Below, one piece after another: positions 11,618-58,084 of a stretch of DNA of 64,000 bases. The stretch's first letter is position 1. Each line of letters opens with the position of its first letter. Made by a program: the position numbers and the translations under genes. The notes beneath the pieces are model-generated. The model searched no databases and was not told the origin of the DNA. It saw only the letters and a program-made list of their open reading frames with translations. Source of the stretch: Candidatus Poribacteria bacterium (GTDB lineage: Bacteria; Poribacteria; WGA-4E; WGA-3G); NCBI GenBank assembly GCA_965214095.1, contig OZ243938.1:2080001-2144000 (forward strand). The letters run 5' to 3'.

Positions 11618-13534
11618 ATGAGACATTTTTTAATTTGTGTTGGATTACTAATTATTACTACAACAGTCCTTGCACAAGGAATAACCTTAACATCAATAGA
11701 CTATCGTAAAGATATGTTATTGGCAAATGAACCAAAAATAACAGGATTTGAAGGTGCATCAGCGATAATTGAGTTTGAAACATTGATTGATACCCCTGCA
11801 GCGGTTGCATATTACGGTGTTCCACATACCGAAGGGAACTTGACTACGCCAAGATACCGTAAAGCAGTGAAAGGTATACACATTGATGACAACAAAACGA
11901 AACATCGTATTGCACTGGATATATCAAAACTTGAGGATGTGCATTATGATACAGGTTTGATTGCTAATAATGGTGGTACAATAGTCTATCGTATTGAGGT
12001 GTTTGATCCACGTATACAGACAGCACGAGCTTATGATAGGCGATTGCGTTACGAAAGGGATGGCGAACCTAAAACAGGTAAATATACATCGCTTGTGACT
12101 TTGACAGAAGGTCCGTTTGTGGATCTTGTAACACACAATTCTGCAGTTATTTCTTGGGAGACAAATATTCCAACAAAGGGGTCTGTTCTGTCTGCAAATA
12201 GGGAATTTCTTTCATTACAACCTTCTGTTCGGCATGAAGTCAAACTCACGAAGCTAAAACCGAATACAGTCTATACCTATCAAGTCAATTACGACATCTA
12301 TACACCAAAGTATACATTTAAAACAGCCCCTGACATAGGTACACGGACAAGTATTAAGTTCGGATTTATGTCTGATTCACGTGCTGGTGTAGGTGGTGGA
12401 GAACGTGCGCAAAACGGTGTCAATGCTAAAGACCTCGCTCGGTTCGCAATAGAACTCTATAATAAGAAAGCAGATTTTGTATGTTTCGGTGGTGACCTTA
12501 TCAACGGTTATACCTCTGACCCCAAAGACTATGAGTGGCAGTTGGAAACATGGAAACGAACCATCCAACCAGTTGCTGCAAATATTCCATTCTATGAATC
12601 AATGGGTAATCATGAACAGGTCGGTTCGTATTACAAGATGACTGCACCGCATTTACCACGGGACGAATACTATATCCCATTCACTGGTACAGTTGGAGAA
12701 GATAGTGCAGAGGCGATTTTCGCAAAAGAATTTGTCAATCCTAAAGGAAGTCGATATGAGTTAGGAATTCCAAATCCAGAGACAAAAGGTAGCAAAGAAA
12801 TGGAGGGTGCTAATGTTGGTCCCTCATACAGTGAAAATGTCTATTCATTCATTTACGGTAGGATCCATTTCATTTCTCTGAATACCAATTATTGGGGAAC
12901 AGGTTATAGGAATATAAGCGATTTTGGCCAGAAATCTCAGGATAAAACTGCGATAAACCTTGCCCTAAAACATCTCGGTGGTAATAGGGAAGGATATGTA
13001 ATGCGTAATCAGATGGCATGGTTGAAAAACGAGTTGGATGCAGCACAAAAAGACATCAGTGTTGATTGGGTGTTCATCATACTTCACGAACCGCCTTTCC
13101 CGAATGGTGGACATGTCAAGGATGCGATGTATTGGGGTACACCCGGTGAAGGTGGAACTGGTGGATACAACGATAAAAACGTGCCTCTGGGTAATGTGCT
13201 TGATATGCGAAACGAATTTTGGAAGATAGTTTCAAGCAAATCAAAAGTGTTAGCAGTGCTTTGCGGTGATGAACATAATTACAGTCGCACTTTAATCGAT
13301 TCATCTGTCCATCCAGATTTTAGGTTTCCCGTTTGGCAGATAATAAGTGGTGGTTGTGGTGCACCATATTATGTGCAAGACAAGTCGGTGCCTTGGGTTG
13401 ATAAGGTAAAAGCATTTACTATTGATAAACATTTCTGTTTATTTTCTATAGAAGGTAGTCAGGTCGGGTTGGAAGTCTACAACGACAGCAACCAGCTCTT
13501 AGATAGCATTGACAACCTAACAACAATTCGATAG
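11618..13534 (+). CDS. Secreted metallophosphoesterase (purple acid phosphatase-like, FN3-type domain)
   Basis: Signal peptide; HEVKLTKLKPNTVYTY; GDL, GNHE, LHEP, GDEH motifs; immediately upstream of pstS. Confidence 0.85.
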   Translation: MRHFLICVGLLIITTTVLAQGITLTSIDYRKDMLLANEPKITGFEGASAIIEFETLIDTPAAVAYYGVPHTEGNLTTPRYRKAVKGIHIDDNKTKHRIALDISKLEDVHYDTGLIANNGGTIVYRIEVFDPRIQTARAYDRRLRYERDGEPKTGKYTSLVTLTEGPFVDLVTHNSAVISWETNIPTKGSVLSANREFLSLQPSVRHEVKLTKLKPNTVYTYQVNYDIYTPKYTFKTAPDIGTRTSIKFGFMSDSRAGVGGGERAQNGVNAKDLARFAIELYNKKADFVCFGGDLINGYTSDPKDYEWQLETWKRTIQPVAANIPFYESMGNHEQVGSYYKMTAPHLPRDEYYIPFTGTVGEDSAEAIFAKEFVNPKGSRYELGIPNPETKGSKEMEGANVGPSYSENVYSFIYGRIHFISLNTNYWGTGYRNISDFGQKSQDKTAINLALKHLGGNREGYVMRNQMAWLKNELDAAQKDISVDWVFIILHEPPFPNGGHVKDAMYWGTPGEGGTGGYNDKNVPLGNVLDMRNEFWKIVSSKSKVLAVLCGDEHNYSRTLIDSSVHPDFRFPVWQIISGGCGAPYYVQDKSVPWVDKVKAFTIDKHFCLFSIEGSQVGLEVYNDSNQLLDSIDNLTTIR

Positions 13535-13715: not shown

Positions 13716-13747
13716 TCTTGCATAAGTTTATGAAAAGGATTATTTAC

Positions 13748-14659
13748 ATGCAATACAGAGGACTGGTCATTTATGTTACTTTAAGTATACTTGTCTTTTC
13801 AATATACGGTTTTGTCATCCGAGATGGTTCATCTGATAAGCAGCAGGGGGAAGAATCGGGACAATCCATCATCAAGAATAAAGGTTCCGATACTATGGTC
13901 AATTTGGCACAGGCTTGGGCTGAAACATATTCTGGCATTTCAGACACAGTTTCTGTAGAAGTATCAGGGGGTGGTTCAGGAACAGGTGTTGCTGCATTGA
14001 TCAATGGTACAGTCGATATTGCAAACTGCAGCCGCCAGATAAAACCCAAAGAGAAGGAAGAGGCAGAGAAAAACACTGGTAAAGAACCGATTGAGTTTAT
14101 TGTCGGTTATGATGCGCTTGCTGTTTATGTACATAAAGATAATCCTATTAACCGAATTACAATACCACAACTCGCCGAAATATATGGTGAGGATGGTAAG
14201 CTCACTAAATGGAATCAACTTAGAATTGCAAATGCGGGTTGCCGTAGTGATAAAATCATCCGAATCAGTCGACAGTCAAACTCAGGCACCTATTTTTATT
14301 TTAGGGAAGCACTTCTTGGCAAAGAACGAGATTTTGAGTCAGGATCGTTAGATTTACACGGTTCAAAAGATGTGGTGGAAGTCATCGGACGGACACTTTG
14401 TGCTATAGGGTATAGTGGTATGGGATATGCAACTGACCATGTGAAGATGTTAGAGGTAGCAACTGCATTAGATCAACCTTATTACTCCCCGAACCTTGAG
14501 AACGTTATTGCCAAAACATACCCAATTGCGCGTCCTTTATATATGTATTCTCTTGGTGAACCAACCGGTGAAGCAAAAGCTTACTTGGACTGGATTCTTT
14601 CAAATAAAGGACAAAAGATTGTTGAGGAACTTGGTTTTGTGCCATTAACAAGAAACTAA
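13748..14659 (+). CDS. pstS: Phosphate ABC transporter substrate-binding protein
   Basis: KGSDTM, GGGSGTG, R..NSGT, YPIARPLY; start moved to ATG 13748 (AAGGA SD, downstream of the -10). Confidence 0.93.
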   Translation: MQYRGLVIYVTLSILVFSIYGFVIRDGSSDKQQGEESGQSIIKNKGSDTMVNLAQAWAETYSGISDTVSVEVSGGGSGTGVAALINGTVDIANCSRQIKPKEKEEAEKNTGKEPIEFIVGYDALAVYVHKDNPINRITIPQLAEIYGEDGKLTKWNQLRIANAGCRSDKIIRISRQSNSGTYFYFREALLGKERDFESGSLDLHGSKDVVEVIGRTLCAIGYSGMGYATDHVKMLEVATALDQPYYSPNLENVIAKTYPIARPLYMYSLGEPTGEAKAYLDWILSNKGQKIVEELGFVPLTRN

Positions 14660-14676: not shown

Positions 14677-15954
14677 ATGAAGTTTATCCATATCTTATTC
14701 TCAATTAATGGACGTATCAATAGAGCCGGTTGGTGGTTACTGAATCTTCCGATATTTGTTATATTGGCAATATCCCTTACAACATTCGATTTTCCAGCAA
14801 CTTTATTATTTGAGCAAATACAGTTACTTATTCTCTTAGTCCTAGTTTGTGTACATAGTGCGGTATCAGCTAAACGTTGGCATGACAAAGACAAATCAAC
14901 GTGGTGGTTGCTGTTTCATATCATTCCGCTTATCTGTTCAATCTGTATATACGCAGCGAAACTGTCTTCAACATGGTGGGAGTTGATTCATGTCATCACA
15001 GTTATTAATTGTCTGTGGACATGCGTTGAATTGGGCATAATCAAAGGGACAGCAGGTGACAATCAATACGGACCTGACTCAGAAACCTCTTCGGAGTCTA
15101 TAATTGATGTCTATATCAGTATTTGCGGAATAAGTGCAATTCTCTTTGTTTTCGGAATATTCTTTTTTGTATTTAAAGAAGGGGCAGGCTTTCTCTTTGG
15201 TGAACTAAACATCTGGCAGTTTTTGTTCAGTGAAGAGTGGTATCCAACTTCTCTGAACAATAAAAGATACGGAACATTGGCGCTGATACTTGGCACTTTT
15301 AGTGTGACAGTATTAGCCATGCTGCTTGCTGTTCCGTTTGGACTCGGTGCGGCAATCTACGTATCCGAATTCTCTAGTCCCAAACTTAAAGAAACCTTCA
15401 AGATAGTCATTGAATTTCTCGCAGCAATCCCGTCTGTTGTTTGGGGTTTCATCGGTTTGACGTTGATGAATGAGATGATTATTAAGGTATTTAACGCACC
15501 CATTGGTTTAACGATGTTAAACGGTGGTATAATGCTGGCATTAATGAGTGTTCCGATCATCGTATCCATTGCTGAGGACGCATTAAAAGCGGTACCAGAT
15601 TCGTATAGAGAGGCTGCAGAAGCACTCGGAGCAACACGTTGGCAGGTGATTTTCCGTGTACTGCTACCTGCTGCGAAGAACGGATTATTGGCGGCAGTAT
15701 TACTCGGTGCTGCGCGTTCCATCGGTGAAACAATGGCAGTTTTGATGGCTACTGGACACTCTGTCAATATACCAGGTGGACCTCTTGCTTGGATACGCAC
15801 ACTCACTGCTACTATCGCCGCAGAATTAGGTGAAGTTGCAAGAGGTGGAGAACATTATCAGGTTCTATTTATTATCGGCATATTACTTTTTACCCTAACA
15901 TTTATCGTAAATCTCATCGCTGATTTAGTAATCAAAGGAATTCGTCAAAGTTAA
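14677..15954 (+). CDS. pstC: Phosphate ABC permease PstC with N-terminal DUF805-like domain
   Basis: C-part: LAAIPSVVWG, EAAEALGAT, RSIGETMAV; N-part: FSINGRINR...KRWHD...GTAGDNQYGPD. Confidence 0.9.
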   Translation: MKFIHILFSINGRINRAGWWLLNLPIFVILAISLTTFDFPATLLFEQIQLLILLVLVCVHSAVSAKRWHDKDKSTWWLLFHIIPLICSICIYAAKLSSTWWELIHVITVINCLWTCVELGIIKGTAGDNQYGPDSETSSESIIDVYISICGISAILFVFGIFFFVFKEGAGFLFGELNIWQFLFSEEWYPTSLNNKRYGTLALILGTFSVTVLAMLLAVPFGLGAAIYVSEFSSPKLKETFKIVIEFLAAIPSVVWGFIGLTLMNEMIIKVFNAPIGLTMLNGGIMLALMSVPIIVSIAEDALKAVPDSYREAAEALGATRWQVIFRVLLPAAKNGLLAAVLLGAARSIGETMAVLMATGHSVNIPGGPLAWIRTLTATIAAELGEVARGGEHYQVLFIIGILLFTLTFIVNLIADLVIKGIRQS

Positions 15955-15977: not shown

Positions 15978-16895
15978 ATGAATAGCAAGACAGAAATAGC
16001 TGCACAGGATATGTTTACTGAAACTGCAGTAGGCAAACAGAATAGATACACAGAGAATATAGTCAAAATATTCTTTCTCATCATGACTTGTCTGATGATT
16101 CTTCCGCTATTATTAATCATTGGATACCTTATCTATAAAGCATTACCTGTGCTATCTTTTGACTTTCTGTTATCAAACCCACAAGATAACATGCGTGCGG
16201 GAGGGATATGGGCACCGTTTCTCGGCACAATATATTTGGTAGTTGTCTCACTCTTGGCAGCAGCACCGATTGGTGTCTTCGCTGCGGTATACCTTAACGA
16301 ATATGCACGGGATAGTTGGTTCACTCGGATAGTTAATTTAGCAGTCGTGAACCTTGCAGGTGTGCCAAGTATTGTTCATGCGTTATTCGGCTTAGGTGCA
16401 TTTGTGTTGTTTGCTGGATTAGGTGAGTCAATCCTTGCTGCATCTCTAACCTTAGCAATTATGACGTTACCCGTGATTATTGCAAGTACAACGGAGGCAC
16501 TGAAAGCGGTCCCGATGTCATTCCGTGAGGCATGTTGGAATGTTGGGGCAACCCGTTGGCAAACGATCAGGCGTATTGTCCTGCCAAACTCTATCAGTGG
16601 CATTCTTACAGGCGTAATTTTACAAGTCTCGCGTGCAGCAGGTGAAACTGCACCGATTATGTTTACAGGGGCGGTATTCTATAAACCTATTGCAGAAGGT
16701 GACCTTTTAGCATATAATATATTTGACCAGTGTATGGCACTTTCATTACACCTCTATACGATTTCAACACAGGTGCCGGATGTAGCAGAGGGCATACCCT
16801 ACGGGACAGCTATTGTGCTGGTGGGAAGCGTTCTTCTGGTTAATGCCGCGTCAATTGTGTTACGGGTATATCTTAGGACGCGAAAGAAGTGGTAG
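15978..16895 (+). CDS. pstA: Phosphate ABC permease PstA
   Basis: NLAGVPSIV, REA...GATRWQ, SRAAGETAP. Confidence 0.93.
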   Translation: MNSKTEIAAQDMFTETAVGKQNRYTENIVKIFFLIMTCLMILPLLLIIGYLIYKALPVLSFDFLLSNPQDNMRAGGIWAPFLGTIYLVVVSLLAAAPIGVFAAVYLNEYARDSWFTRIVNLAVVNLAGVPSIVHALFGLGAFVLFAGLGESILAASLTLAIMTLPVIIASTTEALKAVPMSFREACWNVGATRWQTIRRIVLPNSISGILTGVILQVSRAAGETAPIMFTGAVFYKPIAEGDLLAYNIFDQCMALSLHLYTISTQVPDVAEGIPYGTAIVLVGSVLLVNAASIVLRVYLRTRKKW

Positions 16896-16986: not shown

Positions 16987-17745
16987 ATGTTACCCATGTT
17001 GAATGATCTTAACGATGAATATACTGGTTTCAGAAAGAACATTTACGAAATAATTGAAGGACCTGTTGTAAGCGGAATTATCCAATTTTTGATACTTGCT
17101 TCTGCAGTAGCCTTTGTTCTTGAGACTGAATCTGCCTTTGATAAATATGAGACTTATTTTGTAATATTAGATTGGACTTTTTTAGCACTTTTTACAGTAG
17201 AATATATATTACGTGTCTATACCGCTCCTGATAGGAAAGCGTTTATATTCAGTTTCTTCGGCGTTGTTGATCTGCTCGCGATTTTACCGGCTCTCATGCT
17301 GATACCCGGGTTTCGTGTGCTACGTGTTCTCAGATTTTTACGGATTTTCAGAATCTTTAAAGCCACACGATTCGTTTTAGCAGTGGATAGAATGATTGAG
17401 GCATTAGCGGAAGTTAGAAGAGAGCTTCTGGCACTTGTGATTTTGTGCTCACTGTTTGTTTATTTAGCTGCATGTGGCATCTACGTTTTTGAAAAAGATG
17501 TTCAACCAGAGAAATTCGGCTCTATTCCTGATGCGATGTGGTGGGCAATCGTATCACTAACGACTATCGGATATGGTGATGTGTATCCCGTTTCAACTGG
17601 TGGCAAAATCTTTACTGCATTAGTTGCTTTAGTCGGTGTAGGACTTATTGCTATTCCATCTGGATTGTTAGCATCTGTTCTAACTGAAGCGAGGGTTGAA
17701 GAAGAAATGCAAGACGAGGAGAATGGTGAAAAAGATGAAAAATAA
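16987..17745 (+). CDS. 6-TM voltage-gated-type potassium channel
   Basis: S4 RVLRVLRFLRIFRIFK; pore SIPDAMWWAIVSLTTIGYGD. Confidence 0.92.
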   Translation: MLPMLNDLNDEYTGFRKNIYEIIEGPVVSGIIQFLILASAVAFVLETESAFDKYETYFVILDWTFLALFTVEYILRVYTAPDRKAFIFSFFGVVDLLAILPALMLIPGFRVLRVLRFLRIFRIFKATRFVLAVDRMIEALAEVRRELLALVILCSLFVYLAACGIYVFEKDVQPEKFGSIPDAMWWAIVSLTTIGYGDVYPVSTGGKIFTALVALVGVGLIAIPSGLLASVLTEARVEEEMQDEENGEKDEK

Positions 17746-18055
17746 ATTTGGTGCTCTCATGTTGATTTGTGTGTGTGTTTTCATGTTGCTAAACATACTG
17801 TTCATTTCTGCAGTTGCTCTCTATTTCTTTGAAAAAGATTCACATCATGGAGAGTTCAGTTCACTCGCTGACACTATAAGACATGTTTCATTAGAGTTCT
17901 TCACTGTAGGATATTCAGATATAACTCCTGTCTCTTTCGGTGGAAAACTAATATGTATCGGAGTCTCCATATTAGGCAATTTACTTGGTGTCTTAATATT
18001 TATAGGAATAGCCGTTTGGATATTTAGGTCTGTATCATCCTATAGAAGAATATAA
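17735..18055 (+). CDS. Small 2-TM pore-only K+ channel-like protein with TVGYSD filter
   Basis: TM-FFE...FSSLAD..FTVGYSDITP.SFGGK-TM; in-frame ATG 17735 overlaps the end of the 6-TM channel gene. Confidence 0.75.
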   Translation: MKNKFGALMLICVCVFMLLNILFISAVALYFFEKDSHHGEFSSLADTIRHVSLEFFTVGYSDITPVSFGGKLICIGVSILGNLLGVLIFIGIAVWIFRSVSSYRRI

Positions 18056-18071
18056 ATGGATATAAGAATAG

Positions 18072-18845
18072 TTGGAGCATAGGGACATAGTGCAACCTGT
18101 AATTGAAATTTCAGATTTAAAAGTGTTCTATGAAGACACACAAGCATTGAATGGAATATCATTGGACGTTTATCCAAATGAAATACTTGGTATTATCGGT
18201 CCAGCACAATCAGGAAAAACGACTCTGTTAAGAGTTATCAATAGAACTTTGGAATTTACACAAGGCACATCTATTGAAGGCACAGTGAAGTTAGACGGTG
18301 TTGACATCAATTCAATCAGTGATGTATATGGGTTGCGGAGACGTATCGGAATGGTGTTGCCGTTGCCGGTGGGTTTACCGTTGTCCATATATGACAATGT
18401 GGCGTTTGCTCCAAGAACTGCGGGTCTTCGCAATAAGACAGATTTAGATGAAATTGTTGAGCGATGTCTGCAACAGGCTGCGCTATGGGATGAAGTAAAG
18501 GATCGTTTGGACAGCCTCGGCACTAAACTCTCAGGTGGTCAACAACAACGATTAACCATCGCAAGAGCACTTTCACATCAACCAGAAATCCTTTGCCTTG
18601 ATGAATTCTCTATTGCAGTTGACCCGATTACAACGATGCGTATTGAAGATGTCCTCAAAACACTCAAAGAAGAGATGACTATTTTACTTGTTACGAATTT
18701 GGTTCAACAGGCAAAGCGTTTAGCCAACCGCACTGCATTTATGCTCAACGGAGATTTAATTGAAATTGATAAGACCGATGTTATCTTCTCCGAGAACCCT
18801 ACTAATCAATCCACCTATGATTATGTAAATGGTACTTTCGGCTAA
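18072..18845 (+). CDS. pstB: Phosphate ABC ATPase paralogue 1 (intact signature, degenerate Q-loop and H-switch)
   Basis: GPAQSGKTT, ALWDEVKDRL, LSGGQQQR, LDEF; GMVLPLP and VTNL. Confidence 0.85.
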   Translation: MEHRDIVQPVIEISDLKVFYEDTQALNGISLDVYPNEILGIIGPAQSGKTTLLRVINRTLEFTQGTSIEGTVKLDGVDINSISDVYGLRRRIGMVLPLPVGLPLSIYDNVAFAPRTAGLRNKTDLDEIVERCLQQAALWDEVKDRLDSLGTKLSGGQQQRLTIARALSHQPEILCLDEFSIAVDPITTMRIEDVLKTLKEEMTILLVTNLVQQAKRLANRTAFMLNGDLIEIDKTDVIFSENPTNQSTYDYVNGTFG

Positions 18846-18856
18846 CATCAAGAGGA

Positions 18857-19639
18857 GTGTCTCAATTGGATACAAATAACTACAGTATAGAAACAGAGAA
18901 TCTTAGCCTGTGGTATGGTGATTTTCAAGCACTTATTGATGTGAGTGTTAACATTCCTACTGGCAAAATAACTTCTTTGATTGGACCATCTGGGTGTGGC
19001 AAAACAACACTTCTTCGCTGTTTCAACCGAGTCAATGAAAGGTATGGGAACGTTACAACAGAGGGTGAAATAAAGATATTAGGAAAAAACATTTACGATC
19101 CGGATGTTTCTCTGCTTGAATTGCGAAAAACAGTAGGCATGGTATTTCAACGTCCTAACCCGTTGCCGATTTCGGTTTATGAAAATATCCTTTTCGGTCT
19201 ACGAATACATTCACCTTTTAGAAGTCTAAATCGAACACAAGCCGATGAAATAGTAGAAGAAGCACTTACTGCAGTTTTTCTGTGGGATGATCTGAAGGAT
19301 AAATTGAAAATGCGTGCGACCTCATTACAATTAGAACAGCAACAGAAACTATGTATTGCACGCCTGTTGCCGCTCAAACCGCAGGTGATATTGATGGATG
19401 AACCTTGCTCAGCACTTGATGCCAAAGGCACGCTTGCTGTTGAGGAATTGATGTCAGTACTCGCTGGTTCATACACTTTTTTGATTGTTACGCATAATAT
19501 GGCACAAGCAAGACGGGTTAGCAATGAGTGTATTTACATGTTCCTCGGTGAACTCATTGAACATAGAGAAACACAGGCACTATTTGAAACGCCTGAACAT
19601 CCGAAAACTGCGGATTATGTGCAAATGCGATACGGATAG
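18857..19639 (+). CDS. pstB: Phosphate ABC ATPase paralogue 2 (intact Walker/Q/H motifs, degenerate signature)
   Basis: GPSGCGKTT, GMVFQRPNP, MDEPCSALD, VTHN; signature LQLEQQQK. Confidence 0.88.
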   Translation: MSQLDTNNYSIETENLSLWYGDFQALIDVSVNIPTGKITSLIGPSGCGKTTLLRCFNRVNERYGNVTTEGEIKILGKNIYDPDVSLLELRKTVGMVFQRPNPLPISVYENILFGLRIHSPFRSLNRTQADEIVEEALTAVFLWDDLKDKLKMRATSLQLEQQQKLCIARLLPLKPQVILMDEPCSALDAKGTLAVEELMSVLAGSYTFLIVTHNMAQARRVSNECIYMFLGELIEHRETQALFETPEHPKTADYVQMRYG

Positions 19640-19714: not shown

Positions 19715-20440
19715 TTGATGAATGCAAATATCATGAACAGGTCAGAACTAATTTATCATACCATTGCCATAGTAACACTGGCGATAGTCATTATTCTGTT
19801 ATGGAACTTCACTTCAGATGTGTCTTATGTTGAAGATCAAACCAGTTCTGATGTGATGACAGAAGAGACTTTGTCTACAATATATGGTCAACTATACCGA
19901 ATGATTCCGAGTTTCTGTGGGGTGATATTGTTTAGTATTGCTATCTCATTTTATTTGGAAGAATGGTTGCAACAAACATCATGGCAATACCAAATAATAG
20001 AACGGCATATTGCGATTTTGGCAAGAGTGCCGTCTCTTGTTGTTGGCATATTGGCTGTTTACTTTATCTTATTTTATTTTCAAAACATCACATATTATGG
20101 TCTATTATTGACTGTTGCGTTGCTTGTGATGCCTGTTACCATTCGGTCTACACAAGAGTCAATTCAAACTGTTGATATGTCTGTGCGAGAAGCAGCGTAT
20201 GCGTTAGGAGCAACCAGATGGCGTGTGGTTACTGGTCATGTTTTTCCACGTACCTTTCCTAAGATATTGGCTATAATAGGCACTGCAATTTCACGAATTC
20301 TGGCAGTTGCTGCATTACTCATCTCTGGTGTATGGATTTACGTATCAAACTCGTTTAGTTTTCCGACAAGTGTTATTCTGCTGATAACAGGTGCAGTAAT
20401 AATCAGTGTTCTTTCAAGTCTGCTTGAAGTGAAACAGTGA
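19715..20440 (+). CDS. Short, divergent PstA-like ABC permease
   Basis: YLEEW, LARVPSLVVG, VREAAYALGATRW EAA loop; lacks GETA motif; start uncertain. Confidence 0.75.
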   Translation: MMNANIMNRSELIYHTIAIVTLAIVIILLWNFTSDVSYVEDQTSSDVMTEETLSTIYGQLYRMIPSFCGVILFSIAISFYLEEWLQQTSWQYQIIERHIAILARVPSLVVGILAVYFILFYFQNITYYGLLLTVALLVMPVTIRSTQESIQTVDMSVREAAYALGATRWRVVTGHVFPRTFPKILAIIGTAISRILAVAALLISGVWIYVSNSFSFPTSVILLITGAVIISVLSSLLEVKQ

Positions 20441-20465: not shown

Positions 20466-21236
20466 ATGCAACAACCAATAAATGCACCTGTTTTATATAT
20501 CAATGATTTGAATGTATGGTTTGGGAAAAATCATGTTTTAAAAGACCTAACTTTTGATATTTTTCCAAGACAGGTGACATCATTTATTGGACCTTCAAAA
20601 TGTGGTAAAACAGCATTAGTTCGTTGCTTGAATCGCCTGAATGATTTGAAATCGGACTTTAGATATACCGGTAAGGTACAATTCAATGGAAAGGATCTAT
20701 ATTCGTCCAAAGTACATGTCATTGATATTTCCCAGAAAATAGGAATGATATTTCATAAACCGATTCCTTTCCGTAGATCTATCTATGAAAATGTGGCTTA
20801 TCCTGCACGGCTTCGCGGGATAAAACAATCCTCTGAACTTGATACTGTTGTTGAAGAATGTCTGAGAGAAGCACAAGTTTGGGATGAAGTCTGTCATGAT
20901 CTTGATGCATTACCCGACATATTAACTATCGGACAGCAACAACAGCTTTGCATTGCCCGCGTATTAGCGGGTAATCCTGAAATATTGATATTTGACGAAC
21001 CGTGTGAACAACTGGATGCTACGGAAACTCCTAAATTGGAAGCAACTGTCCAGAATCTCAAAAGCCGATATTCACTCATATTCGTCACTAACAAGAGAAG
21101 ACAAGCAGCCCGTGTGTCTGATGTTGCTGGATTTCTATATAACGGTGAATTAATAGAATTTGGACATACAGAACAAATATTTACGAATCCAAAAGACAAA
21201 CTAACTGAAGACTATGTAACAGGACGTTTAGGATAA
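20466..21236 (+). CDS. pstB: PstB-like ATPase paralogue 3, multiply degenerate
   Basis: GPSKCGKTA, CLNRLND, IFTNPKDKLTEDYVTGRLG; signature LTIGQ, Q-loop MIFH, switch VTNK. Confidence 0.75.
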   Translation: MQQPINAPVLYINDLNVWFGKNHVLKDLTFDIFPRQVTSFIGPSKCGKTALVRCLNRLNDLKSDFRYTGKVQFNGKDLYSSKVHVIDISQKIGMIFHKPIPFRRSIYENVAYPARLRGIKQSSELDTVVEECLREAQVWDEVCHDLDALPDILTIGQQQQLCIARVLAGNPEILIFDEPCEQLDATETPKLEATVQNLKSRYSLIFVTNKRRQAARVSDVAGFLYNGELIEFGHTEQIFTNPKDKLTEDYVTGRLG

Positions 21237-21260: not shown

Positions 21261-21920
21261 ATGCAACACTATTTGGAATCAGAGCTCAAAGCACTACAAC
21301 ACCAACTGCTTAAAATGGGTGGTATTGCAGAGAATATGTTGCGTGATGCTGTCCATTCTGTCCTGAATCGGGACGAGGAATTAGCGCGTCGTGTAATCCT
21401 TGATGATGATACGGTGGACAAATTAGAAAATGAGATTGAAGCGCGATGTATACAACTCATTGCCAGACACCAACCTGTTGCGTTTGAGTTGCGTTATTTG
21501 ACGATGACATTGAAGGTTAATAGAACCATAGAAAGAATGGCGGATAAGTGCGTATCTATTGCCAGACGAAGTATTGAACTGTTAGAATATCCACCGATGA
21601 AACCATTTGTTGACTTACCGTCTGTAACCCATCTTATACAAGAGATGGTGAAAGATGCACTCGACGCATTGGTCAATAGAAATGCGGAACTTGCACGAGA
21701 ACTTCGTGAGCGTGACAGCAAAGTAAATGCTTTTTACGAACAGATGTATGGTGAACTTTGTTCTCTAATGTCTGACCAACCGCAACAGATTCAGACAGGT
21801 ATAAGTCATCTACTTATTTTCCGTCATTTGGAACGGGTGGGTGATTTAGCAGTGAATATTGGTGAAGAGGTTTATTACCTTGTTGAAGGGGAGGTAATTC
21901 GTCATACGGATATTGTCTAA
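21261..21920 (+). CDS. phoU: Phosphate signalling protein PhoU
   Basis: DD.VD.LE.EIE, QPVA.ELR, ERMAD, LERVGD.AVNI.E. Confidence 0.95.
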   Translation: MQHYLESELKALQHQLLKMGGIAENMLRDAVHSVLNRDEELARRVILDDDTVDKLENEIEARCIQLIARHQPVAFELRYLTMTLKVNRTIERMADKCVSIARRSIELLEYPPMKPFVDLPSVTHLIQEMVKDALDALVNRNAELARELRERDSKVNAFYEQMYGELCSLMSDQPQQIQTGISHLLIFRHLERVGDLAVNIGEEVYYLVEGEVIRHTDIV

Positions 21921-44582: not shown

Positions 44583-44719
44583 TATAGCGAAATCATAAAA
44601 TTTGTGCACAATCCCGGTAGATGCGGTTTCCTAACCGCATCTATGTGACTAAACAAACACCGGTTCGGTTCTGAAACCGAACCTACCGTCGTGTGCAAAT
44701 AATTATGGTTTTTACTAGA
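44583..44719. mobile_element. 137-bp MITE (shell S3) with inverted REP-A pair; empty allele
   Basis: Ends TATAGCGAAATCATAA..TTGTGCAC / GTGCAAATAATTATGGTTTTTACTAGA; CGGTAGATGCGGTTTCCTAACCGCATC ... GGTTCGGTTCTGAAACCGAACCTACCG. Confidence 0.75.
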
Positions 44720-44734
44720 AGAAGGAAGTTTACG

Positions 44735-47700
44735 GTGAAAAGAATATTTGTTTTGGTTTCATTTTTTTTGATTCTTGGTTTACAAATAACAGGTTTTACG
44801 GAAATCACTCCAGTGGTTGATCGCACAACACAGGTACGTGATGCTATAGTGGCTGCTGCGAGTGTTAATTCCGCAAGTGATGTGACTGAGACACAACTTG
44901 TTGCTATCACAAGTCTGAACCTACGTTCAAAAGGTATTACAGCACTAAAATCTGGTGATTTTTCTGGGATGACTGGATTAACAAGTCTGAATTTGTATAA
45001 TAACGAACTCAGCAGTCTACCTGACGGTATCTTTGAAGGACTTACTGCGTTGTCAAGTCTGCGATTAGGTGGCAACACTGTTGATCCGATGCCGATAACC
45101 GTATTACTTGAAGAAGTCGGAGAAGACCAAATCAAAGCAATTGCACCCACAGGTGCTCCTTTTGATATAGTGCTCCCAATTAGTGTTACTAATGGTAGTC
45201 TTTCTGAAGATGTTACTTCGCTTACTATTTCCAAAGGTAGTACGAAAAGTAATTTAGTGCTAGTTTCTCGAACTGCGGGAACGACTGCAGCGGTAACTGC
45301 CAATATCGGAACATTATCCAGTGTACCGAATAATCACTACGGTTATGCACTCTCCAAATCCGATACATTACCGCTTGAAGTTATCGGTGTCATCAGTACG
45401 CCACCAGAAACTCCGATAGAACCAGAAACACCAGTGGAACCAGAAACACCAGTGGAACCAGAAACACCTGATAATACGGCCCCGATGTTCAATGATGACA
45501 CTATTGTCGTCCGTTCGGTATCTGAAAACACAGCACCAGATGTGAATATTGGGAGTGCGGTTTCAGCCACTGATGCTGAAAATAATACATTAATATATAG
45601 TCTCAGTGGAGTGAATGCGGACTCATTTTCAATTGTAAGTACGACAGGACAATTAAAAACGAAATCTTCATTGAACTATGAGACAAAACGGATTTATTCA
45701 GTATCAATTACTGTCTCCGATGGGAACCTTACAGATTCTATAACTGTGATTATCAGCATAATTGATATAGACGAAACACCTTATGTTTCTACAATGCTTT
45801 CTGTTGAGGATCGCACACCAGAAGTGCGTGATGCTATTGTTGCAGCAATACCCAGTGTAAGTGCTGCTGAAGATGTGACTGAAACTCACCTTGCAGCGAT
45901 TACCTCTCTAAACCTTCGGACTGCTGGGATTTCAGAACTCAAAACAGGCGATTTTTCAGGTTTAACAGGTCTTACAAATCTAAGTCTCTACGACAATATG
46001 TTGGAGAGACTACCCGTAGGCATATTTGAAGGACTCACATCGCTAACTACCCTTCGTTTAGGTAGTAACCTTGCAGACCCAATACCGCTCATTGTATCAC
46101 TTCAACAAGTTGCTGCTGATCAGTTCCAGGCTATTGTTCATACAGGGGCACCATTTAATGTTGTCCTACCGATAGAAGTGACCAATGGCATAACGAGTAA
46201 TGGAGAAACGACAATCACAATACCACAAGGGAGTCTGAAGAGTGATGCATTCACTGTCGTATCAACGAGCACATTAGAGGCTATTGGCGTATCTATTGGA
46301 ACATTACCTTCCTTACCCGCGAACCATTATGGTTATATTTTGGCAAGATCAGCAGTGTGTAGCCGCACTCCGCAAGTCGCAGATGCAATTGCCGCTGCTG
46401 TGTCCGGTGCAAGTGACTGCAATAATGTGACAGATGTTGATTTAGCGACCATCACATCGCTTGATCTAAGCGATGTGGATATTACATCACTGAGAACAGA
46501 TGATTTCTCAGGATTACTGTCACTATCAGCACTCAACCTTTCAAATAACCTATTAGATAGTCTACCTGACGGTATTTTTGACAGTTTGACATCATTAACA
46601 TCCCTTAACTTGAGTGGTAATACTGTTGACCCATTTCCCTTTGGGATTGCATTGGAGAAGGTTGGAGAAGACCAATTCACAGCCGGAATATTAACAGGTG
46701 CTCCTTTTGATATTGTTTTGCCGATCACTGTAGCGAATGGTAGTCTCAGTGGTAATGTGACGACTCTTACGATTCTTCAAGGGAACAGAGACAGCATGGC
46801 TGTGAGTGTTGTCCGAACTCCTAAAACTTTTGGGGCTGTCACAGTTAATTTGGGTGCCTTACCGAGTCTACCTACAATACAAACAGGTTATGCACTTGTC
46901 AAGTCCAATCAAGTGCCGTTGGAGATTCTTCCAGCACTAAATGTTGCGCCTGAGTTCATTGATGGTGAGAGCACAACGCGTTCTATTGCAGAACGGACAG
47001 TAGCCGATGTAAATATCGGTAGTCCTGTTTCCGCTACGGATGGTGATGGTGATACTCTAACCTATAATCTTAGTGGTACCGATGTTGAATCTTTTAATTT
47101 TGATAGTACGACAGGGCAACTAAAAACAAAATCTGAACTGGATTATGAAGAAAGAATATCTTATACGGTCACAATTACTGTTTCCGATGGCGTTCTCACA
47201 GATACTATCACAGTTACCATCAATATTACTGACATAAATGATAACCGTAGACCTGAGTTTACAGAAGGTGATAGTGCTACAAGGATCATAGCGGAAAGTA
47301 CGAATGCTGGTGTAGACATTGGGAGTGCTGTTTCCGCAACCGATCCTGATGAGGACACCCTGACCTATAGTCTTTCAGGCACAGATGCTTCTGCATTTGA
47401 TATTGACAGTTCAACAGGTCAATTACAAACGAAAGCATCCTTAGATTATGAAACGAAATCATCATATTCGGTAACAGTAGATGTATCTGACGATGAGTTT
47501 TCGGACAGTATTACTGTCACAATCAACATCGCAGATATAGATGAAACCACTGCCGATGTAAATGATGACACACCGAATAACGCGCCTGTTTTTACCGACG
47601 GTGAGTCTACTACGCGATCCGTTGCAGAAAATACGGGTTCCGGTGTTGACATTGGTAATCCTATTTCTGCAACAGATGAAGACAAAGACACTTTAAGCTA

Positions 47701-50700
47701 CAGTCTTGGCGGTACAGATGCATTATCGTTCAGTGTCGGTAGCACGAATGGTCAATTGCGAACAAGCGCAGCTCTCAACTATGAAACGAAATCTTCCTAT
47801 TCAGTGATAATAACGGTTTCTGATGGCAATGAAGGCAGTGCTACCATCAGCGTAACCATCAATATTACAGATGTGTTAGAGAAAACCAATACAGCTCCTC
47901 AGTTCACGGATGGCAGTACCACGTCGCGTTCGGTTGCTGAGAATATAGGATCGGGTGTAGATATTGGCAGTGCTGTCTCTGCGACAGATGCTGACGATGA
48001 TACTTTAACTTATAGTCTCGGTGGCACAGATGCAGCATCTTTTACCGTTGGAAGTGCGAATGGTCAACTGCGAACGAGCGCATCACTTGATTATGAAACG
48101 AAGTCCTCCTATTCAGTGATGATCACGGTCACCGATGGAAGAGGTGGAAGTGATTCTATTGTTATCACAATCAATGTTACGGATATTGTTGAGGCAACAA
48201 ATACAGCACCCACATTCACAGATGGCAGCAGCACATCTCGTTCCATAGCAGAGAACACAGGTTCGGGTGTAGACATTGGCAGTGCTGTTTCTGCGACAGA
48301 TGCTGACGATGACACGTTGTCTTACAGTTTAGGTGGAACGGATGGGTCCTCATTTAGTATTGATAGTAGTTCAGGACAACTCCGCACCAGTGCATCGCTG
48401 GATTATGAAACAAAGTCATCATATATCGTAACGATGACCGTATCTGATGGAAAAGGTGGTAGTGACAGCATCACAATCACTATCAATATCACTGATGTAG
48501 ATGAAGCGACGAATACTGCACCAATCTTCACAGAGGGTAGCAGTACATCGCGCACCATAGATGAGAATACGGGTTCGGGTGTAGACATTGGCAGTGCTGT
48601 TTCTGCGACAGATGCTGACAATGATACTTTAACTTATAGTCTCAGTGGCACAGATGGATCTTCGTTTAGTATTGATAGTAGTTCAGGACAACTCCGCACC
48701 AGTGCATCACTGGATTATGAAACCAAGTCATCCTATACCGTAACGATTTCTGTCTCCGATGGGAATGGTGGTAGTGCAAGTATCACGGTCACCATTGATG
48801 TCAACGATATCGACGAAAGTCCTGCCAACAACGTTCCTGTCTTCACAGATGGCAGCAGCACGACCCGCACTATTGCTGAAAATACAGCAACGAATGTGAA
48901 CATTGGTAGTCCTGTGTCTGCAACTGATGCTGACGATGATACATTATCCTATGGTTTGATTGGCATAGATGCCAGTTCTTTTAGCATTGATAGCACGACA
49001 GGACAGTTGAAAACAAAAGCAGCTCTTAACTTTGAAACGAAAGCTTCGTATAAAGTCACGGTGTCCGCATCTGATGGTCAAGGTGGCAGTACCAGGATCA
49101 ACGTAACGATAAACGTCACGAATGTCAACGAAGCACCGGTGTTTACTGCGGGAACAAGCACAATCCGCTCAATCGCAGAAAACGCTGGTTCTGGCATAAA
49201 TATAGGGAGTGTTGTGTCTGCAACGGATGTTGACAGCCCGACATTAACCTATACCCTCGGTGGTACGGACGCAGCATCATTTGACATTGAATCTACAACA
49301 GGACAATTGAAAACGAAGGTAGCTTTGGATTATGAAACAAAAGCATCCTATTCCATAACCATTACGGTATCAGATGGCAGCCTTACGGATTCCATCACAG
49401 TGACAATCAACGTCCGAGACTTAGACGAAACACCTTCAAACATTGCGCCTGTTTTCACTGATGGTGACGATACAACACGTTCAATTGCAGAGAATACTGC
49501 ATCTGAGACCAACATTGGAGATGCAATTGCTGCTACAGACGAGGATAGTGCTGTCCTCGCATATCTACTTAGTGGAACAGATGCTTCTTCATTTACCATT
49601 GATGGGACTACAGGACAGTTGAAAACAAGTGCTGTCTTGAACTTTGAAACGAAAGCGAAATATACAGTGACTGTGACCGTCTCCGATGGTAGTCTTACCG
49701 ACAAAATTACTGTCACGATTAACGTCACAAATGTCAACGAAGCCCCTGTGTTCACGGCAGGTGCGACAGCAACACGTAGTGTTGCAGAAAATACGGCAGC
49801 AGAGACGAACATTGGTGCTGTTCTTGCGGCAACCGATCCCGATGCTAACGACACCATAACTTACAGCCTCGGTGGCACGGATGCGGCATCGTTCAATATT
49901 GTCAGCACATCCGGTCAACTTAAAACGAAAGCAGCACTTGATTATGAAACCAAAACTTCCTACGAGGTCACGGTGACTGCGACTGATTCTGGGAATGCTA
50001 CTGACACAATCTCTGTCACGATCAATGTCTCGGATGTCAATGAGAACCGTGCCCCAGCATTTGCGAGTGAAAGCACCACTCGTTCCATCGCAGAAAACAC
50101 AGGTTCTGGTATCAACATTGGAGATGCTGTCTCCGCTACAGACCCCGACACCGACGACACACTTGTATATTCACTGGGAGGCACAGATGCTGCGTCCTTT
50201 GATATTGGCAGCACAAATGGACAACTCAGAACAAAAGCTGCTCTGGACTATGAAACAAAATCCTCATATTCCGTGACAGTATCGGTCTCTGATGGAAACG
50301 GAGGAACGGATTCAATATCTGTCACCATCAATATTACAGATGTCAATGAGAACCGTGCCCCAGCATTTGCGAGTGAAAGCACCACACGTTCCATCGCAGA
50401 AAACACAGGTTCTGGTGTCAACATCGGAGATGCTGTCTCCGCGACAGATCCCGACACCGATGACACGTTGGAATATTCACTCGGTGGCACAGATGCCGCT
50501 TCATTTGACATCGGCAGCACAAACGGACAACTCAGAACAAAAGCTGCTCTTGATTATGAAACCAAAGCCTCGTATTCCGTTACAGTATCTGTTTCTGACG
50601 GAAATGGTGGTACAGATTCAATATCTGTCACCATCAATATTACAGATGTCAATGAAAACCGTGCCCCCGTATTTGCGAGTGAAAGCACCACACGTTCCAT

Positions 50701-53700
50701 CGCAGAAAACACAGGTTCTGGTGTCAACATCGGAGATGCTGTCTCCGCGACAGATCCCGACACCGATGACACGTTGGAATATTCACTCGGTGGCACAGAT
50801 GCCGCTTCATTTGAAATCGGCAGCACAAACGGACAACTCAGAACAAAAGCTGCGCTTGACTATGAAACCAAAGCCTCGTATTCCGTTACAGTATCTGTTT
50901 CTGACGGTAATGGTGGCACAGATTCGATCTCCGTCACCATCAATGTTACGGATGTGCCCGAGAACCGTGCCCCGGCATTTAGCACGGACAGTGCTACGCG
51001 ATCCGTCGCTGAAAATACAGGTTCCGGTGTCAACATCGGCATAGCAATTACCGCAACCGATCCTGATAGTAGTGACACGTTGGAATACTCACTGGGTGGC
51101 ACAGATGCGAGTTCTTTTAGTATTGACAGCACATCAGGACAACTCAGAACAAATGCTGCGCTAAACTATGAAACCAAAAGCTCGTACTCCGTGACGGTTT
51201 CTGTTTCGGATGGAAATGGTGGAACGGATTCTATCGCTGTCACCATCAACGTTACAGATGTCAACGAAGCACCCACATTTACGGAGAATTCACCAACCAC
51301 GCGGTCAATTTCAGAAAATACAGCTTCGGACACGAATATCGGGAGTGCTGTGTCTGCGACTGATCCGGATTCGGGTGACTCTTTGACTTATGGTCTTGGT
51401 GGGACAGATGCGGCTTCGTTTAGCATTGATAGTAGTTCAGGACAATTGAAAACAAAAGCCGCACTTGACTATGAAGATGATGATGGTTATGAAGTGACCG
51501 TTATTGTCTCTGATGATAACTCATCAACTTCAATCACTGTCAACATTTCTATCTCGGATGTCAACGAAGCACCTACATTCACAGAAAGTTCACCAGCGAC
51601 TCGGTCTATAGATGAACATACTGTTTCTGGACAGAATATCGGAAGTGCTGTATCCGCTACAGATCCTGAGGGTGATACGTTGACATATACACTTGAAGGC
51701 ACAGATGCCTCATCCTTCAGTATTGTCAGCACGAGTGGGCAGCTACAGACAAAGGTTGCATTGGATTATGAAACTACGACTTCATACTCTGTATCAGTTA
51801 AGGTCTCTGACAGTTCTCTTACAAGCACAATCTCTGTCACCATCAATGTTACCGATGTCACTGAGAACCGTGCACCCTCATTTTCAGACAGTAGTTTCTC
51901 TTACAGAATATCAGACATTGAAAACGCATCTGTGGGGGATAGCATTGGTGATCCTGTCACTGCGTCCGATGCCGATGACGACACATTGAGTTATAGTGTT
52001 GGTGGGGATGATGCCGCTCTGTTTGATATTGATAGCAGTTCTGGACAACTGAAAGTCACACAATCTCTTATTGATCATAGCAGTTCTGCTTATTCAATAA
52101 AGGTGATTGCTACGGATCCTGATGATGCCACAGCTGAAATATCAGGAACGATATTTGTTACCCGTGTCACAAGACAATTAGCAAACAACCCACCTATATT
52201 TGATGATGGTGAAAGCATAACCCTTTCAGTCGCAGAAAATACTGCATCCGGAGTAAATATCGGTACTCCTATCACTGCCACAGACGATGATGCAGACGAT
52301 ACATTGACCTATAGTTTGGAAGGCACAGATGCGGCTTCGTTTTCTATTGTCAGCACGAGTGGACAGTTGCAAACCAGTACCGCGTTAGACTATGAAACAA
52401 AGAACTCATATTCGGTAACTGTCAAGGTCACTGATGATAGTGGGGCAAGTAACAATAGTGACACGATTGCTGTTGCCATCAATGTGACTGACGTGGATGA
52501 AGGTATTACTCCTGAAATAAACAATGCCCCAGTATTTGCTGATGAGAGCACAACCCTTTCAGTCGTAGAAAATACTGCATCCGGAGTAAATATCGGTAGT
52601 CCTATCACTGCCACAGATGATGATGCAAGCGATACATTGACCTACAGTCTTGAAGGCACAGATGCAGCATCGTTTTCTATTGTTAGCACGAGTGGACAGT
52701 TGCAAACCAGTGCTGCGTTGGACTATGCAACGAAGAACTCATATTCTATAACTGTGAAAGTCACTGACGATAGTGGTGCAAGTAATAATAGTGATACCAT
52801 CACTGTTACGATCAATGTCACAATCGAAACACTTCTCAGTAACCGTACAGCTGGGGTTAGGAATGCGATTTTAAATGCTATTGAAGGTGTAGATGATGCA
52901 GCTGATGTTACTGAAACGCATCTTGCAGCGATCACAGGAACATTAGACCTAGCTGGGGATAAAAGTATCAGGGCAAATGGTCTCAAATCTGGCGATTTTG
53001 AAGGTCTTACCAGTTTGACAGGACTCAGCTTGGGACAAAACGAGTTAACAATACTTCCAGATGGCATTTTTGAGGATCTTACCAGTTTAACAACACTCGA
53101 CTTGACTGGAAACGAGTTAACATCACTTCCAGATGACATTTTTGAGGATCTTACCAGTTTGACAACACTCAAGTTGATCAGTAACGATATAACAACACTT
53201 CCAGATGGCATTTTTGACAATCTTACCAGTTTGACACTCCTTGACTTCTTTCTAAACGAGTTAACATCACTTCCAGATGGCATTTTTGATAACCTCACCA
53301 GTTTGACACACCTTAACTTGGATTTTACCGAGATCGCATCGATATCTGCTACAATCTTTGATAATCTGACTTCGCTTACGATACTTGAGTTTGAAGCCGG
53401 TAACTTAACAAGTCTTCCAGCGGGTGTTTTTGACAACCTTACAGCACTGACAAGACTTGATCTGGATGGTCATGAAATCAGCATATTACCTGATGGGATC
53501 TTTAAGAATCTTACTAATCTGGAGATCCTTGAATTGGATAGTAATGAATTGTCTACTATACCAGCAGGAACGTTTGCCGGTTTAACCAATATAAAAGAAC
53601 TCTATTTATATGGTAACGCAGTTGAACCGCTGCCTATCAATATAGATTTTGTGGCAGTTCCAGGAGGTAAAATTAAAGCGGTTGCTCCGATAGGCGCACC

Positions 53701-57915: not shown

Positions 57916-58055
57916 TTATACCGTTTCTAATAAAGAATATCTCATTATGAGAGTATAAATTCTAACTTAGATAGAGAATGTCCGAGGCGCAATGAATTGC
58001 GCTACTACGAACGCCTGTTTTGATAATGACGGGTTATTATTTAGAAATGGTATTA
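57916..58055. mobile_element. 140-bp MITE (S4) with GTAG-type palindrome
   Basis: TTATACCGTTTCTAA / TTAGAAATGGTATTA; core GGCGCAATGAATTGCGCT-ACTAC. Confidence 0.75.
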
Positions 58056-58084
58056 CTTTTATTTTATATATAAGGAATCATCCT

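Follow-up and report, generated by a model that had tools for sequence, protein, structure and literature searches.

In an ATP-binding cassette (ABC) transporter, each ATP site is assembled from the Walker A and B motifs, the Q-loop and the H-switch of one nucleotide-binding domain (NBD) and the signature of the other, the two domains being arranged as a head-to-tail dimer. Pairs of one consensus and one degenerate site are frequent among ABC exporters, where the degenerate site binds nucleotide without hydrolysing it, and for the histidine importer one active site can be enough (PMC3971661). Two non-identical PstB proteins of one phosphate importer, PstBA and PstBB of Bacillus subtilis, were modelled as a heterodimer, and the excerpted part of that study notes degenerate sites only for the fused proteins RbsA and NupO (PMC11466899). 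Authors working on the tandem pstB paralogues of Enterococcus faecalis stated that no prior study of such paralogues existed (PMC12096839). Here, we analyse a tandem pair, pstB1 and pstB2 (products B1 and B2), located in a 64,000-nucleotide stretch of a Candidatus Poribacteria genome (GCA_965214095.1, contig OZ243938.1, positions 2,080,001 to 2,144,000), which we call the window. The two proteins have lost complementary parts of the catalytic machinery, and they have done so in every related pair that we examined.

Degenerate ATP sites have so far been studied mainly in exporters. The original prediction, made from the letters of the window, named no Pst importer for which such asymmetry is known. 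This agrees with our literature searches, which returned no report of a degenerate or asymmetric PstB, although their coverage of subscription journals is thin and absence is unproven. A one-sided ATPase pair, known in exporters, has apparently not yet been described for phosphate importers.

Reciprocal motif changes in PstB1 and PstB2

The homology of the motifs was judged by residue alignment to the solved E. coli PstB (PDB 9k3x, chain C), which B2 matches with 245 bits and B1 with 210 bits. The two genes and their motifs are located as follows:

18072..18845, + strand: pstB1, the presumed signature-donating, non-catalytic NBD (TIGR00972, 287.6 bits; PF00005; aligned to 9k3x_C)
18198..18221, + strand: B1 Walker A GPAQSGKT (residues 43-50; Lys49 kept, fourth-position Gly replaced by Gln)
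18348..18368, + strand: B1 Q-loop GMVLPLP (residues 93-99; Pro97 in place of Gln)
18528..18542, + strand: B1 signature LSGGQ, canonical (residues 153-157)
18588..18623, + strand: B1 Walker B ILCLDEF (residues 173-179; Asp177 and Glu178 kept) with the altered D-loop SIAVD
18687..18704, + strand: B1 switch LVTNLV (Asn209 in place of His)
18857..19639, + strand: pstB2, the presumed catalytic NBD with a degenerate signature (TIGR00972, 313.6 bits; aligned to 9k3x_C)
18983..19006, + strand: B2 Walker A GPSGCGKT, canonical
19136..19156, + strand: B2 Q-loop GMVFQRP, canonical (Gln98)
19325..19339, + strand: B2 signature LQLEQ instead of LSGGQ (residues 157-161)
19385..19420, + strand: B2 Walker B VILMDEP (Glu182) with the canonical D-loop CSALD
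19484..19501, + strand: B2 switch IVTHNM (His213)

Each substitution in B1 and B2 was confirmed at the homologous position of 9k3x chain C. As originally predicted, B1 keeps LSGGQ and has lost the Q-loop Gln (GMVLPLP) and the switch His (VTNL), while B2 keeps Walker A and B, the Q-loop Gln and the His but carries LQLEQ as its signature. A complete canonical motif set is thus present in neither protein, nor is it present in a third paralogue further downstream, PstB3 (B3), in which the Gln and the His as well as the first Gly of the signature are missing. The gene extents given earlier do correspond to open reading frames (ORFs) on the + strand, but both starts are likely set a few codons too far upstream: B1 likely begins at GTG 18090 (251 amino acids) and B2 at TTG 18866 (257 amino acids), since a GGAG-type ribosome-binding site lies ahead of each of these codons and the resulting lengths match those of most B1 and many B2 orthologues.

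By the head-to-tail geometry, every non-consensus residue falls within a single composite site, made of the P-loop side of B1 and the signature of B2, and the other composite site, made of the P-loop side of B2 and the LSGGQ of B1, is fully consensus. A B1-B2 heterodimer would hence hold one consensus and one degenerate site, while either homodimer would hold no complete site; this is the logic on which the original prediction was built, and it follows the established geometry of ABC dimers. We estimate at roughly 0.7 the probability that the ATPase is an obligate PstB1-PstB2 heterodimer with one hydrolysing consensus site and one degenerate site that binds ATP without hydrolysis. Three elements of this reading are inferred: that the two proteins dimerise physically, that the degenerate site binds ATP but does not hydrolyse it, and the stoichiometry.

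In the mechanism that we propose, an importer composed of PstS, PstC and PstA would be powered by this obligate heterodimer. The canonical site, in which Walker A and B, Gln98 and His213 of B2 meet the LSGGQ of B1, would hydrolyse ATP and drive the cycle. The degenerate site, formed by the P-loop side of B1 (Pro for Gln, Asn for His) and the LQLEQ of B2, would hydrolyse ATP poorly or not at all. During hydrolysis by B2 it would serve as a latch that depends on nucleotide, or as a regulatory site, and each transport cycle would cost no more than one ATP.

Does the degenerate site still bind ATP? Very probably it does, because Lys49, the A-loop Tyr20 and the Asp177/Glu178 pair of B1 are invariant; among 30 diverse B1 orthologues the invariant residues include Y20, G43, P44, A45, S47, G48, K49, D177 and E178. 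A different role for B1 would be that of a structural scaffold, which binds no nucleotide at its own site and only donates LSGGQ to B2. Such a role could account for the loss of the fourth-position Gly from the B1 Walker A (GPAQSGKT), and in the B2 signature a Glu occupies the position from which the second Gly would face the gamma-phosphate. The GxxxxGK[TS] core, Tyr20 and Asp177/Glu178 are, however, invariant across phyla, which is hard to explain without a bound nucleotide, and we hold a pure scaffold to be very unlikely.

The same residues can also be read in the opposite direction. Lys49 and the catalytic Glu178 are invariant in B1, and the invariance of the degenerate residues could itself mean a compensated active-site chemistry, so that Pro, Asn and LQLEQ would be tolerated and the pair would be an ordinary two-site PstB with odd motifs. 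Against this stands the distribution of the changes: the Q-loop Gln, the switch His and the Ser-Gly-Gly of the signature are all missing from one site, and the other is untouched. Losing the switch His or the signature alone abolishes or strongly reduces ATP hydrolysis by ABC proteins. Moreover, the single substitution E179Q largely abolishes the ATPase activity of E. coli PstCAB (PMC12976172). We therefore give catalysis at both sites hardly any chance, and retain the heterodimer with a single hydrolysing site as the preferred reading.

Conservation of the reciprocal pattern in related loci

Is the reciprocal pattern peculiar to this genome? A genome scan with B1 yielded at least 530 relatives among 589 pattern matches, of which the best 80 were analysed as loci. 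By their record titles, 45 of these belong to Poribacteria, 15 to Verrucomicrobiota, two each to Thermodesulfobacteriota, Deferribacterota and Myxococcota, and one each to Bacteroidota, Actinomycetota, Pseudomonadota and Fibrobacterota, while ten name no phylum (nine phyla or more in all); these are the labels of metagenome-assembled genomes (MAGs) as deposited, and some are possibly wrong. The two distinct NBD genes co-occur in 79 of the 80 loci, with the B2 orthologue immediately 3' of B1, and the one exception (L068) stops at a contig edge. Together with the window this gives 80 pairs, represented by 81 rows of B1 and 80 of B2.

Locus by locus, the reciprocal pattern was found in 80/80 pairs. 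All 81 B1 rows have Pro at the position of the Q-loop Gln, Asn at that of the switch His and an intact LSGGQ; LCLDEF and SIA[VI]D are likewise constant (81/81 each), and GPAQSGK[TS] occurs in 78/81. On the B2 side, the Q-loop Gln and the switch His are present in 80/80 rows and GPSGCGKT in 79/80 (the exception being the truncated ORF of L041), and the signature reads LQLEQ in 79/80 rows and LSLDQ in L066. In addition, 120/120 further close B1 homologues from the protein collection retain PLP, VTNL and LSGGQ. The co-conservation in tandem pairs that had been proposed as a check of the original prediction thus extends over many phyla and supports that prediction, and the substitutions are not the variable ones that would have spoken against it. 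The pair marks a widespread clade and is not peculiar to this genome. No B1-type protein was found in the plasmid collection: identity does not exceed 48.4% at the best places listed, and each of the 157 records lies in the band below 60%.

The odd residues of the degenerate site, i.e. Pro-Leu-Pro, Asn and LQLEQ, are as conserved as the catalytic residues. Across the loci, all four Pro codons are in use for Pro97 and both Asn codons for Asn209, and each residue of LQLEQ has between two and six synonymous codons. Evidently, these residues are held under selection through synonymous codon turnover. The constraint on B1 equals that on B2, with a mean pairwise identity of 0.768 versus 0.775 and 120/246 versus 129/249 near-invariant columns, and both proteins are under equal purifying selection. 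The reciprocal pattern is not a product of chance or decay.

A pseudogene state of B1, or relaxed selection on it, was considered and is ruled out by its B2-equal conservation and the synonymous codon turnover.

In 22/80 loci the stop codon of B1 overlaps the start of B2, and in 45/80 it lies no more than 30 nucleotides away, which suggests coupled expression. Nevertheless, B1 and B2 might not pair with each other at all. They could form homodimers in alternative Pst complexes, or B2 could power transport with B1 as an accessory or regulatory subunit, e.g. in PhoU/PhoR signalling. Such an accessory role has been proposed for PstB1 of E. faecalis, where PstB2 is required and an excess of PstB2 replaces PstB1 (PMC12096839); phoU genes are present at most of the related loci, and a canonical PstB can share a genome with B1 and B2, as in the locus L045 described below. 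Paired with itself, however, B2 would carry LQLEQ at both sites, and B1 would have neither Gln nor His at either site, while the observed defects are exactly complementary in all 80 pairs. The two genes are always adjacent and often overlapping, B1 is as conserved as B2, and the E. faecalis pair is canonical in both proteins, so that it offers no like-for-like precedent (PMC12096839). We consider separate roles for B1 and B2 quite unlikely.

Several points weigh against an obligate heterodimer with one hydrolysing site. Many degenerate sites of exporters have lost the catalytic Glu of Walker B. B1 has kept it (Glu178), which may leave residual hydrolysis possible at the degenerate site. The 80 pairs share one ancient origin and are hence not 80 independent events. 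B3 shares the pattern of B1, with neither Gln nor His and with most of the Ser, Gly and Gln of the signature retained, and could also pair with B2, which makes the partner set in this genome less settled. Finally, one of the two tandem PstB proteins of E. faecalis, when overexpressed, carries Pi (inorganic phosphate) import alone (PMC12096839). Tandem genes by themselves thus do not imply an obligate heterodimer, although that pair is a canonical one.

Permeases, gene neighbourhood and the PstA2-PstB3-PhoU module

The closest B1 homologues and the closest related loci bear the name Candidatus Poribacteria, and the host belongs to the sponge-type Poribacteria. As judged from ORFs and family profile matches, the + strand between 11.6 and 21.9 kb of the window forms a single phosphate-acquisition cluster, in which the following genes and motifs accompany pstB1 and pstB2:

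11618..13534, + strand: metallophosphoesterase with a purple-acid-phosphatase-like N-terminal domain, 638 amino acids, secreted-looking, directly upstream of pstS
13718..14659, + strand: pstS, periplasmic phosphate-binding protein (TIGR02136, 227 bits against a cut-off of 206.6)
14677..15954, + strand: pstC with an N-terminal DUF805 domain (TIGR02138, 268.8 bits; PF05656 on residues 8-133)
15607-15642, + strand: PstC EAA loop REAAEALGATRW
15712-15732, + strand: PstC Pi-site motif ARSIGET
15978..16895, + strand: pstA (TIGR00974, 260.5 bits; aligned to E. coli PstA, 9k3s_A)
16524-16559, + strand: PstA diverged EAA loop REACWNVGATRW
16629-16649, + strand: PstA Pi-site motif SRAAGET
16987..17745, + strand: voltage-sensor-type K+ channel (Ion_trans, filter TIGYGD), between pstA and pstB1
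17696..18055, + strand: small pore-only channel ORF (filter TVGYSD), between pstA and pstB1
19715..20440, + strand: pstA2, short PstA-like permease (TIGR00974, 86.5 bits against a cut-off of 193.45)
20186-20221, + strand: PstA2 EAA loop, kept and ordinary
20291-20311, + strand: PstA2 Pi-site motif, GET lost
20466..21236, + strand: pstB3, third PstB paralogue, 0.8 kb downstream of the pair (TIGR00972, 297.5 bits)
21261..21920, + strand: phoU (TIGR02135, 202.5 bits against a cut-off of 130.25)

TIGR00972 is the top family for B1, B2 and B3, yet all three stay below its curated cut-off of 343.2 (287.6, 313.6 and 297.5 bits), while PF00005 (ABC_tran) is matched by all of them well above its cut-off of 25 (89.0, 92.7 and 72.8 bits, respectively). 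The assignment to Pst is given by the operon: PstS, PstC, PstA and PhoU score above their cut-offs and are encoded in the same + strand cluster, and the pst synteny is retained across the related loci. A tblastn search of the 64-kb window returned no PstB-like gene besides B1, B2 and B3.

The Pst system looks like a working importer, because the Pi-coordinating R..GET motif is kept both in PstA (77/77 rows) and in PstC (75/75 rows). A Pi-coordinating role of the PstA and PstC Arg residues has been described for E. coli (PMC12976172). In the alignment to 9k3s_A, the coupling helix of PstA reads REACWN (within REACWNVGATRW) where that of E. coli PstA reads REAAYA (within REAAYALGTPKW), and ACWN is found in 77/77 PstA rows of the clade. 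The Q-loop region of B1, where an NBD contacts a coupling helix, is also remodelled, and the ACWN helix of PstA may be co-adapted to it. Since the PstA helix and the B1 Q-loop region have both been remodelled and the coupling helix of PstC is ordinary, B1 is predicted to dock on PstA and B2 on PstC.

At its N-terminus, PstC itself has a DUF805 membrane domain (PF05656) that is about 140 residues long. Of the 38 sponge-type loci with a pstC gene, 13 encode a PstC of this type, matched over its full length of 425-437 residues, and in the remaining loci PstC is of the plain form with about 287 residues.

PstB3 and PstA2 were overlooked by the original prediction, and they complicate the assignment of partners in this organism. 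B3 has the Walker A GPSKCGKT and the signature LTIGQ, with His in place of the Q-loop Gln and Asn in place of the switch His. In 42 locus rows and 120 homologues of B3, the Asn is nearly constant and the signature follows LSxGQ; the Q-loop residue is variable, mostly Arg, with Gln retained in 23/120 homologues. The rate of evolution is higher for B3 than for its two paralogues: over one set of 41 genomes, its identity is 0.708, compared with 0.866 for B1 and 0.892 for B2. It is found in the loci L001-L040 and in the window, always in the order pstA2-pstB3-phoU, and all B3 homologues bearing a name are Poribacteria; the module is confined to sponge-type Poribacteria. PstA2 is 31% identical to PstA over 154 residues; none of the variants listed among 41 rows has GET, and their Arg is not constant. 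On these motifs, B3 could donate a signature to B2 as a second partner, or it could belong, together with PhoU, to a signalling module that does not transport. A recent origin of B3 by duplication of B1 or of B2 is rejected, since it forms its own long-stemmed clade (starred support of 100, stem 0.62) outside both.

These observations can be joined into a wider and tentative picture, which we regard as rather doubtful as a whole. In it, (a) the degenerate site would be a conserved regulatory site that senses nucleotide or another ligand and gates a phosphate importer spending one ATP per cycle; (b) the remodelled Q-loop region of B1 would be co-adapted to the REACWN helix of PstA and fix the orientation of an asymmetric ATPase on the asymmetric PstC-PstA channel; and (c) in sponge-symbiont Poribacteria the non-catalytic PstB3, PstA2 without GET and PhoU would constitute either a phosphate-signalling pseudo-transporter or, with B2, a B2-B3 engine.

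Further observations concern the neighbourhood. The metallophosphoesterase at 11618-13534 is probably a Pho-regulon phosphatase and is conserved in part of the Poribacteria loci. The larger K+ channel lies at the same place in 39/40 sponge-type loci, the exception (L010) having no visible upstream pst genes, and it is missing from that place in the non-sponge loci. Towards the end of the window, two giant ORFs, 44693-56467 (3924 amino acids) and 57992-64000 (at least 2002 amino acids, running off the window), encode cadherin, LRR, Big_9 and PKD repeats. Such eukaryote-like repeat proteins are typical of sponge symbionts.

The wider PstB family and known transporters

How far do degenerate motifs extend in the PstB family? 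Among the 150 best 50%-identity representatives from the B1 search, we counted 87 canonical proteins, 20 B1-like ones (neither Gln nor His, LSGGQ kept), 23 with a changed signature, 13 incomplete and 7 other ones. Sixteen of the 23 signature changes are trivial (MSGGQ, FSGGQ, LSGGE) and seven are real: LSAEQ, LTEEQ, LTADA, LSIGQ (twice), LSLGQ and LSAGQ. A quick IQ-TREE phylogeny was calculated from 166 rows, comprising 62 rows of B1, B2 and B3 (from 25 loci and the window, out of 81 available gene sets) and those 104 representatives out of 150 that covered the full length, which 46 did not. B1, B2 and B3 each form one clade (starred supports of 99, 100 and 100, respectively). The rows nearest to the B2 clade are the LSAEQ and LTEEQ representatives (starred support of 95), and the B1 clade groups with the P0134 group at 93% SH-aLRT (Shimodaira-Hasegawa-like approximate likelihood ratio test).

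The P0134 group (P0134 and P0391-P0509), with Sorangium sp. So ce260, Polyangiaceae and Gemmatimonadaceae among its named members, resembles B1 in that the Q-loop Gln and the switch His are replaced (Ala and Asn, respectively, in 120/120) and LSGGQ is kept (119/120). It differs from B1 in its Walker A GPAGSGKT, its Walker B LLDEP and its D-loop SGLD.

Two related loci hold further PstB proteins next to the pair. In a Syntrophobacterales MAG (L045:15424-15951, - strand), a canonical PstB with Gln, LSGGQ, DEP, SALD and VTHS, cut by the contig end and located beside PhoU genes, lies about 5 kb from the B1/B2 pair, and canonical and degenerate PstB systems can thus coexist in one genome. In a non-sponge poribacterium (L042:12702-17911), a second module downstream of B1 and B2 encodes a 728-residue PstC-like protein, a 312-residue PstA-like protein, a PstB-like protein and PhoU; this PstB-like protein is strongly degenerate (Walker B IDDP, no switch His, LSEGE).

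From its motifs and operon, the pair would be a degenerate-site ABC ATPase within a type I phosphate importer whose NBDs are separate subunits. If this holds true, such a natural type I importer would let one test whether one ATP per cycle is sufficient for high-affinity uptake, and what role a non-hydrolytic site plays in importers. Via PhoU, Pst also serves the Pho regulon as its sensor arm, and an asymmetric ATPase may have a bearing on the read-out of the transporter's conformation. Members of the clade occur widely (Poribacteria, Verrucomicrobiota, Thermodesulfobacteriota, Myxococcota and other labels), and the related type in cultured Sorangium makes it experimentally reachable. Annotation pipelines label all such proteins simply as 'phosphate ABC transporter ATP-binding protein'.

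Compared with known systems, the locus is close in organisation to E. coli PstSCAB (PDB 9k3x, 9k3s and 9k3y; PMC12976172), with which it shares the operon logic of pstS, pstC, pstA and pstB with phoU, the NBD family and the Pi-coordinating Arg motifs of PstA and PstC. The E. coli ATPase, however, is a PstB homodimer with two consensus sites, whereas here two different NBDs would form one consensus and one degenerate site. The Firmicute tandem genes pstB1/pstB2 of E. faecalis (PMC12096839) and PstBA/PstBB of B. subtilis (PMC11466899) are likewise two adjacent, non-identical pstB genes in one operon. Unlike B1 and B2, the Firmicute pairs are canonical in their motifs, and in E. faecalis one paralogue can substitute for the other (PMC12096839). 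B. subtilis RbsA and NupO are importers that were likewise judged from sequence to hold one degenerate ATP site (PMC11466899), but there the NBDs are fused and the Walker A Lys is missing from the degenerate half, whereas B1 and B2 belong to a type I importer as two separate polypeptides, with this Lys kept. The heterodimeric exporters TM287/288, TAP1/2, BmrCD, PatAB and CFTR offer a parallel for the ATP sites, as they likewise carry reciprocal non-consensus residues that leave one degenerate and one consensus site. They are, however, fused half- or full transporters of transmembrane domain and NBD, in contrast to the separate NBDs found here, and in TM287/288 it is the Glu of Walker B that is changed to Asp (PMC3971661), whereas B1 keeps this Glu and has instead lost the Q-loop Gln and the switch His.

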